A stretch of DNA of 64,000 bases, taken from NCBI RefSeq assembly GCF_013122565.1, contig NZ_CP053258.1. One strand, written 5' to 3'. The DNA is from Escherichia coli. GTDB taxonomy: Bacteria; Pseudomonadota; Gammaproteobacteria; Enterobacterales; Enterobacteriaceae. Positions 45,001 to 48,000 of the stretch are shown here, one piece after another. Made by a program: the position numbers. Each line of letters opens with the position of its first letter. Position 1 is the first letter of the stretch.

Positions 45001-48000
45001 CTTCAAACGGCACATTCAGGGTGCGACGGACAAAACTTGCCCCACCATCACAGGCCACCAGCCACTGGGCTTTGACTATTTCCCGCTGCCCTTCTGCCGT
45101 TTTCAGGTGCAAGGTCACTTCGTCATCTTGCTGACTGAAGACCTCCAGCTCGCGGGAAAACAAGCAGCGCACATTCGGAAAACGCGACACCCCTTCCAGC
45201 ATCACCGCATCGACCTGCGGCTGAATAAAGGCGTTACGGCGCGGCCAGCCAAATTCATCGGTCATTGGCTGAATATCAGCAAAACAGCGGCCCTTCGGGG
45301 TGAGAAAACGCATCGCGTGCCACGGCGTAGTATGCGGCAGAACATTATCGACCAGGCCGACCGACTGCATGGTGCGCAGCGCCTCGTCATCAATACCAAT
45401 CGCACGCGGGTAGTCGATCAACTTATCGAGTTTCTCCACCACCAGCACGTCAATGCCCATCTGGCCGAGATAGTTCGCCATCATCAGCCCGACCGGACCG
45501 GCACCAGCGATCGCCACCTGAACGCTATGGTTAACAGCAGGCTGGATGTCAGGGTGTTGTATTGCCATTTCAGTACCTCACGACTCGGACAAAATGCCGT
45601 TGCGCGCACAGTACAGCGCAACTTACTTTGTTAAAAACATGTAAATGATTTTTTATTGTGCGCTCAGTATAGGAAGGGTGTTTTCGGCTACAATCAAAAC
45701 ATGCCCGAATGTGCACCAGGTGCACAACGTTGTTTTAACTATAGAAATGTCAATTAATATGCAGAACAATGAGCAGACGGAATACAAAACCGTGCGCGGC
45801 TTAACCCGCGGTCTAATGTTATTAAATATGTTAAATAAACTTGACGGCGGTGCCAGCGTCGGGCTGCTGGCGGAACTCAGCGGCCTGCATCGCACCACTG
45901 TGCGGCGACTGCTGGAGACGCTGCAGGAAGAGGGATATGTCCGGCGTAGTCCCTCCGATGATAGTTTTCGTCTGACCATCAAAGTGCGGCAATTAAGCGA
46001 AGGATTTCGTGACGAACAGTGGATTTCTGCACTGGCGGCCCCACTGCTGGGCGATCTGTTACGCGAAGTGGTATGGCCGACAGATGTGTCCACGCTGGAT
46101 GTTGATGCAATGGTGGTACGCGAAACCACTCACCGTTTCAGCCGCTTATCCTTTCACCGGGCAATGGTCGGGCGACGTTTGCCGCTTCTGAAAACCGCCT
46201 CGGGCCTGACCTGGTTGGCCTTTTGCCCGGAACAAGAACGCAAGGAATTAATCGAGATGTTAGCCTCCCGCCCCGGTGATGACTATCAACTGGCACGAGA
46301 ACCGTTAAAGCTGGAAGCCATTCTGGCGCGCGCGCGCAAAGAGGGTTACGGACAGAACTACCGCGGCTGGGATCAGGAGGAGAAGATCGCCTCTATCGCC
46401 GTACCGCTGCGCAGTGAACAACGGGTGATTGGCTGTTTGAATCTGGTGTATATGGCGAGCGCAATGACCATCGAACAGGCAGCGGAAAAGCATCTTCCGG
46501 CACTACAACGGGTAGCAAAACAGATCGAAGAAGGGGTTGAATCGCAGGCTATTCTGGTGGCCGGACGGCGAAGCGGCGTGCATTTACGCTAGTTACGCCA
46601 ATGTGTAATTTGGCCCATTCTCATCGTTATTCGCCCATTTGCCCACATGCACAGTACGGGCTGCACGCTACGCTAATGACATCAATACTGTGATGTGGAG
46701 CAAATCATGAAAATTACGCAAATTCGTAATGCCACCCAAATTATCCAATACGCTGGCAAAACATTTCTTATCGACCCGTTACTCGCGCCTAAAGGAAGTT
46801 ATCCGGGTTTTGCCGGAACGGCACGCGCAGAAATCCGCAATCCAACGGTAGAATTACCGTGCGATTTAACAACGTTACTCAACGTTGACGCCCTAATCGT
46901 GACCCATTTGCATGAAGATCACTGGGACGAAACAGCCTCCCGCGTCGTTCCTAAAGATAAACTGATTTATGTGCAAAATGAGCAAGATGCTGAATCACTG
47001 AATAAACAAGGATTTACGCATCTTACCGTACTTACCGACGAGACTAAATTTGGCGATATTACTCTGCATAAAACGACAGGGCAGCACGGCTCCGATCGCA
47101 CCTATGCCGACCCGGCTATGGCGAAGCGTTTAGGCGCAGCCTGCGGCGTTGTTTTCCAGCACCCGACAGAGAAAACGCTCTATCTGGCTGGCGATACCCT
47201 CTGGCGTGACGACGTCGAGGCTACAATGCTAACTTTCCAACCAGAAGTGGTTGTGTTGAATGCCGGATTTGCGCATGTTCTGGGGCATGGCGCGATAATT
47301 ATGGGAGCAGAAGATATTCTCAAAACACATTTTACCCTGCCAGAAGCGCAAATTGTCGCGACACATATGGAGGCCGTAAACCACTGTTTGCTGACGCGTG
47401 ATGCGCTCAAGGAATACGCCAGAGATAATCAAATTATCGAATTTGTGAACGTACCAGAAGATGGTGAAACGTTGACATTCTAATTCGGAGATAAAGAGTG
47501 TTATGCGCCCGCTAACTGTTGCCATTATCGCCGTTGCCGGTTTTAGTCCTTTTCACCTTTCCGTACCGTTTATCGTATTTAGCGAAAAAATGGCGGAGAA
47601 AAAACACTTTCACGTAATTATCTGCGCTGAAAAGCCGGGAAACGTGGACTCTGCCGATGGGTTTTCCGTAACCGCCACCCATGACTATACCGCAGTCATC
47701 CAGGCGGATATTGTGATAATTCCTTACTGGGGAACAATTACACAAAAACCGCCACAAAAACTGCTGGAAGCCTTAACGACCGCACGGGATAACGGCGCAC
47801 AGATTGTCGGGCTTTGCCTGGGCACGTTTGTGCTCGGCTATGCAGGTTTACTGAAAAATAAGCGTGCCGCCACGCACTGGGAGTTCGAGCGTGAATTTCA
47901 GGCACGTTTTCCACAAACACATCTGGATATTAACGCGTTGTACGTAGACGATGACGGCATTATTACCTCTGCCGGTACTGCCGCGGCGCTGGATTGCTGT

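Follow-up and report, generated by a model that had tools for sequence, protein, structure and literature searches.

A conserved 17-bp palindrome in the mhpA-mhpR intergenic region of Escherichia coli is very probably the operator of the IclR-family activator MhpR

The mhpA and mhpR genes are divergently oriented in the 64-kb stretch of Escherichia coli DNA analysed here (referred to as the window) and are separated by an intergenic region of 190 bp, which corresponds exactly to positions 45569-45758. The mhpR start at 45759 was consistent with the 277-aa K-12 annotation and with the point at which the similarity among the orthologues begins. The mechanical list of open reading frames additionally offered an in-frame upstream ATG at 45645, giving a product of 315 aa. 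The added stretch (45645-45758) would run through the palindrome described below, and this start was rejected because both the orthologue similarity and the K-12 annotation begin at 45759, which identifies the extension as non-coding. The mhpR product was assigned to the NCBIfam equivalog NF007341 with a score of 345 bits (cutoff of 269) and contained the Pfam domains HTH_IclR and IclR_C. The 801 bp surrounding the palindrome matched numerous E. coli chromosomes with 99.9% identity, and mhpR and mhpA were annotated under the match. In the case of K-12, lacI is located directly after mhpR. The corresponding mhpR-lacI interval of the window (46695-48456) includes the genes for an MBL-fold metallo-hydrolase and for ovrA ('OI-19-encoded virulence regulator'), both of which are absent from K-12; the window therefore represents a non-K-12 lineage carrying the OI-19 islet. 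The features of the locus are collected in Table 1.

Table 1. Genes and regulatory features of the mhpA-mhpR region (positions refer to the window)
Feature	Position	Strand	Remarks
mhpA	43904-45568	-	opens the catabolic operon mhpABCDFE, under operator control
Putative -10 of the mhpA promoter (Pa), TATACT	45666-45671	-	invariant CAGTATA block in 13 enterobacterial sequences
Putative weak -35 of Pa, TTGTAG	45688-45693	-	16-bp spacer to the -10; conserved GCTACAATCAAAACA block
MhpR operator (very probable)	45710-45726		self-complementary GTGCAC core in two copies (45711-45716 and 45720-45725) at a distance of 9 bp, with T/A flanks
Polymorphic outer base of the operator	45726		A here (perfect palindrome), C in K-12 (outermost pair unmatched)
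Conserved box TTGTTTTA (consensus TTGnTTTa)	45730-45737		towards mhpR, at a distance of 4 nt from the operator
Weak CRP-like candidate AAATGTCAATTAATATGCAGAA	45745-45766		6/10 core positions; overlaps the mhpR start codon
mhpR	45759-46592	+	annotated gene; IclR-family activator that binds the operator

The intergenic region contained a perfect 17-bp palindrome, TGTGCACCAGGTGCACA, which can be written as TGTGCACC-A-GGTGCACA and was recovered by direct reading of the sequence, by a pattern search and by a repeat finder. The repeat finder returned two 8-nt arms (45710-45717 and 45719-45726) that were 100% complementary and separated by a 1-nt spacer. The palindrome was centred at position 45718, at a distance of 41 nt to the mhpR ATG and of 150 nt to the mhpA ATG (45568, minus strand). 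An initial inspection of the DNA (the sequence-only reading) had described a perfect inverted repeat at this site, approximately 40 nt from the mhpR start and 150 nt from mhpA, and both the repeat and the distances were confirmed. The pattern search found no third GTGCAC unit beside the operator in the window. The chance rate of such a palindrome was evaluated with first-order Markov simulations of the 64-kb window, in which perfect inverted repeats with 8-nt arms and a 1-nt spacer occurred with a mean of 1.15 per 64 kb and were present at least once in 74% of the simulated windows. The window itself held exactly one, and the chance expectation of finding it within the 190-bp intergenic region was 0.003. 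Taken alone, the palindrome is not significant, and the mismatch-tolerant pattern search was not significant by itself either; the significance of the palindrome derives from its position in a divergent promoter region and, decisively, from its conservation. Further perfect inverted repeats, with arms of at least 8 nt and spacers of 2-4 nt, were located at 18504-18523, 40837-40856, 48194-48212, 48599-48617, 53878-53896, 59875-59894 and 62361-62380, two of them near the ovrA-lacI junction. The total was nine, as compared to a chance expectation of 6.2 ± 3.0.

The intergenic region aligned without gaps to that of K-12 MG1655 with 99% identity, and the site corresponding to the palindrome was TGTGCACCAGGTGCACC. 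Read on the opposite strand, this K-12 sequence corresponds to the published MhpR operator GGTGCACCTGGTGCACA, which is given as the E. coli MhpR binding motif in Table 1 of PMC8222616 (Suvorova and Gelfand 2021), with Torres et al. 2003 as its source. The supplement of the same paper gives the operator site for b0346 (mhpR)/b0347 (mhpA), the perfect TGTGCACCaGGTGCACA for Klebsiella pneumoniae KPN_02122/02123 and the related ATGTGCAT-N3-ATGCACA for Burkholderia mhpR. The comparison with the K-12 MhpR site, which had been put forward in the sequence-only reading as a way of checking its proposal, thus led to an orthologous site and a published motif: the palindrome of the window and the published operator shared 16 of 17 bases, with a mismatch at the outermost base only. 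The word 'perfect' applied to the 17-mer holds for the strain studied here and fails for K-12, in which the binding was studied. Because of its identity with the published site, and because the adjacent gene product is MhpR, we consider the palindrome to be very probably the DNA operator of this IclR-family activator, which is encoded immediately to its right. The MhpR operator as such is already known from the K-12 experiment and from published comparative genomics. According to work attributed to Torres and co-workers in 2003 and Manso and co-workers in 2009, MhpR reportedly binds the K-12 allele of this site, the binding is said to be enhanced by 3-hydroxyphenylpropionate (3HPP), and it is said to be needed for the activation of the mhpA promoter (Pa).

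The phylogenetic footprint of the palindrome was determined in 80 loci obtained by an MhpR protein scan with one genome per species. The loci covered Escherichia, Citrobacter, Kluyvera, Shimwellia, Edaphovirga, Pluralibacter, Pseudomonas, Stutzerimonas, Azotobacter, Azomonas, Marinobacterium, Zobellella, Nitrincola, Oceanospirillum, Xanthobacter and Vibrio, and 450 bp upstream of each gene were searched. Of the 80 loci, 78 had the motif (T)GTGCAC-N3-GTGCAC(A) upstream of mhpR, with top 17-mer scores of 12-16 of 16 within 450 bp. When 4000 shuffled upstream regions were scored in comparison, 98% reached 11/16 at most and none exceeded 13/16. The twelve core positions of GTGCAC-N3-GTGCAC were at least 96% invariant among the 78 loci. 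In these loci of approximately 6.8 kb each, the exact core occurred once in 65 of the 80 and two times in another three, and it was located within the mhpR upstream region in all loci that have it, except for one Pseudomonas locus (L080). The motif was also kept with mhpR where the divergent neighbour was an mhpB-like or mhpD-like gene instead of mhpA. Together with the identity to the published site and the adjacent mhpR gene, this conservation supports the assignment to an IclR-family (MhpR) operator that had been made in the sequence-only reading.

Some of the loci departed from the common arrangement. Three Marinobacterium loci carried a second copy of the motif downstream of mhpR, before an mhpB-like gene on the same strand (L041, 2671-2685; L046, 3801-3815; L055, 3823-3837). 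In the Pseudomonas locus L080, the sole exact-core copy (3843-3857) was located downstream of mhpR, and a one-mismatch site was found upstream. The extra downstream sites suggest that there are two MhpR-controlled promoters in these Marinobacterium and Pseudomonas genomes. No GTGCAC-N3-GTGCAC was found within 450 bp upstream of the MhpR-like genes of two Vibrio loci (L022 and L030; V. cincinnatiensis and V. furnissii). These genes showed 69-74% identity and had no divergent mhpA, and their products may act on another target or through another operator.

GTGCAC is self-complementary, so that the core forms a direct as well as an inverted repeat with a 9-bp period and alone cannot separate the two. 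The flanking positions were symmetric, which indicates an inverted and not a direct arrangement. Positions 1 and 17 were T and A in 40 of the 78 loci, A was present at position 17 in 57, and positions 8 and 10 were T/A or C/G in 52, these counts being taken from phylogenetically related sequences and hence not from independent events. The inverted symmetry fits the binding of a symmetric dimer.

The surroundings of the operator were conserved as well. AGTAT, or an equivalent -10-like hexamer, was found across genera, and its distance to the palindrome was constant within approximately 2 bp. With the start of Pa placed 6-7 nt beyond this conserved -10, transcription would begin at approximately 45659-45660 and the operator would be centred at about -58/-59. 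The geometry derived from the conserved boxes agrees with the position of approximately -58 that was reportedly assigned to the MhpR site by Torres and co-workers. ACAA (TTGT on the minus strand) was conserved in nearly all loci. On the plus strand, the bases of this -35 region read TACAAT (45689-45694), which forms a near-consensus -10 pointing to mhpR and could serve as the -10 of that gene, in which case a leader starting at approximately 45700 would contain the operator. A generic promoter scan of the intergenic region gave no match at threshold, which is uninformative because Pa is activator-dependent. On the other side of the operator, the CGTTGTTTT sequence of the conserved box was invariant in enterobacteria, and TTG.TTT was kept in the majority of the 78 loci, as far as Pseudomonas. 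This box may be a promoter element, or else an extended contact with MhpR, e.g., one made by the second dimer of a tetramer.

An mhpR promoter with TACAAT as the -10 would bring the palindrome into the transcript, where it could fold within the mhpR leader into an RNA hairpin with a trailing U-run (UGUGCACCAGGUGCACA-ACGUUGUUUU) and act as an intrinsic terminator or attenuator. The terminator scan of the plus strand did report seven pairs, a 3-nt loop and the tail ACGTTGTTTT, and the T-rich tail was conserved. However, the hairpin amounted to only about -9 kcal/mol, and the folding of the 63-nt stretch gave a z value of 0.29, with 118 of 200 shuffles folding at least as well. Moreover, the stem bases were invariant and not covarying across the 78 loci, which is the signature of a DNA site read by a protein and not of an RNA helix. 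There is no plus-strand gene upstream of the hairpin in need of terminating, and the mhpR promoter has been reported as constitutive, i.e., independent of MhpR and its ligands (PMC11237407). The pattern of a rho-independent terminator is thus present, but this candidate was rejected because of the weak hairpin, the lack of covariation and the lack of an upstream co-directional gene, and a role of the palindrome as a terminator or attenuator appears very unlikely. Even less probable is the interpretation of the palindrome as a CRP site, or as a site shared by MhpR and CRP, which would be based on the resemblance of TGTGC...GCACA to TGTGA...TCACA. Each arm matches four of the five bases of the CRP half-site, and both promoters in the region are known targets of CRP: the mhpR promoter is CRP-dependent (PMC12132413, 10.1101/2025.11.14.688166), and at Pa, MhpR is the 3HPP-dependent activator and is indispensable for CRP binding (PMC8753852). 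The spacing between the half-sites is, however, 7 bp instead of 6 bp; in the 6-bp register, five of ten core positions match, and a search of 45569-45758 for TGTGA-N6-TCACA with up to three core mismatches found no site. The motif was equally conserved beside mhpR in Pseudomonas and Xanthobacter, which fits a dedicated regulator and not the enteric CRP, and the literature assigns the sequence of the palindrome to MhpR (PMC8222616). Finally, the probability of a chance feature without function is negligible: about one palindrome of this type is expected by chance per 64-kb window and the mismatch-tolerant search was not significant alone, but this reading is excluded by conservation, as 78 of 80 orthologous loci from several bacterial orders have the site at the corresponding location, and it matches the published operator (16/17).

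Apart from the palindrome, a CRP site had been expected in the region in the sequence-only reading. This expectation agrees with the literature (PMC8753852, PMC12132413, 10.1101/2025.11.14.688166), and the sequence holds only weak sites, with at least four mismatches among the ten core positions. Looser scoring returned seven equally weak candidates in the intergenic region, each with 6/10 core positions, and therefore CRP sites cannot be placed from the sequence alone. We tentatively propose AAATGTCAATTAATATGCAGAA as the CRP site of Pa. Its centre (45755.5) would correspond to -95.5 if Pa starts at 45660, and its left half, ATGTCA, was partly conserved in Escherichia, Citrobacter and Kluyvera. 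Torres and co-workers reportedly placed the CRP site of Pa at -95.5; a position of -40.5 has reportedly been given as well.

The allelic state of the outermost operator base was evaluated in complete E. coli genomes, the region being found in 4896 of 5426. A 30-mer across the operator was present in the A form in 3067 genomes and in the C (K-12) form in 1486. Among the genomes carrying the locus, approximately 63% have the perfect palindrome and approximately 30% the imperfect K-12 form. A at the outer base was also in the majority in other genera (57/78 orthologous loci) and is the state listed for Klebsiella. The K-12 operator is a minority allele and, judging from this distribution, probably a derived one. 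It is conceivable, though rather unlikely, that the A/C difference at 45726 alters the affinity of MhpR and that the TTGnTTT box is an unrecognised second element of the MhpR-dependent promoter. If the difference did affect affinity, lineages would differ in how inducible their 3HPP catabolism is, and the operator of the K-12 reference would represent a weaker and derived state. Length changes were additionally observed at the operator. E. coli WP3-W18-ESBL-08 (NZ_AP022003.1; 181-204 of locus L083) carried a 9-bp tandem duplication (GTGCACCAG) within the operator, resulting in three GTGCAC units with 9-bp spacing, and strain H43 had approximately 18 extra bases across the operator region. Slippage at the operator seems to be permitted by its direct-repeat nature.

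These observations can be combined with the published data on the K-12 allele into a model of Pa control. MhpR, either as a dimer or as one dimer of a tetramer, would bind the two GTGCAC half-sites symmetrically, at an operator whose identity, position, conservation and spacing to the -10 come from the sequence in this analysis. The operator would be situated approximately 58-59 bp upstream of the Pa start, at a promoter with a good -10 (TATACT) and a poor -35; we infer this start site and the -35, as well as the particular CRP site used. In the presence of 3-hydroxyphenylpropionate, bound MhpR would activate the transcription of mhpABCDFE. It would also let cAMP-CRP occupy a weak upstream site, thereby subjecting the operon to catabolite control. 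The binding of MhpR, its inducer and the recruitment of CRP are adopted in this model from the literature.

As a known regulatory element of the mhp (3-hydroxyphenylpropionate) cluster, the operator is a correct but ordinary finding that offers little beyond proper annotation. A minor addition is that the operator studied in K-12 represents a minority imperfect allele, and the strain analysed here and most E. coli have the perfect palindrome. The architecture composed of the operator, the -35, the -10 and the extra TTGnTTT box is conserved across gamma-proteobacteria and could guide the design of biosensors responsive to 3HPP or phenylpropionate.

With regard to known systems, the arrangement resembles class I/III CRP-dependent promoters with a co-activator, in that a specific activator is located near -58 and CRP further upstream, according to the literature (PMC8753852). 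It differs from them in that the candidate CRP site is very weak and, by report, is occupied only when MhpR is bound. The operators of PcaU, PobR, PcaR and HmgR (TGT-N11-ACA type, Suvorova and Gelfand 2021) share the 17-bp palindrome and the outer TGT...ACA with the operator described here. As in these IclR systems of aromatic catabolism, the site lies in the intergenic region between a divergent regulator and operon, and an IclR-type protein activates the catabolic operon; the half-site core is GTNCG-like in those operators, whereas it is GTGCAC in the window. Alongside the operator of the window, there is only the unrelated conserved TTGnTTT box, and no third GTGCAC. The Pa operator of K-12 (Torres et al. 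2003, J Biol Chem 278:27575, tabulated in PMC8222616) has the same locus, position, flanking promoter blocks and regulator, and differs in carrying C where the window has A at 45726.
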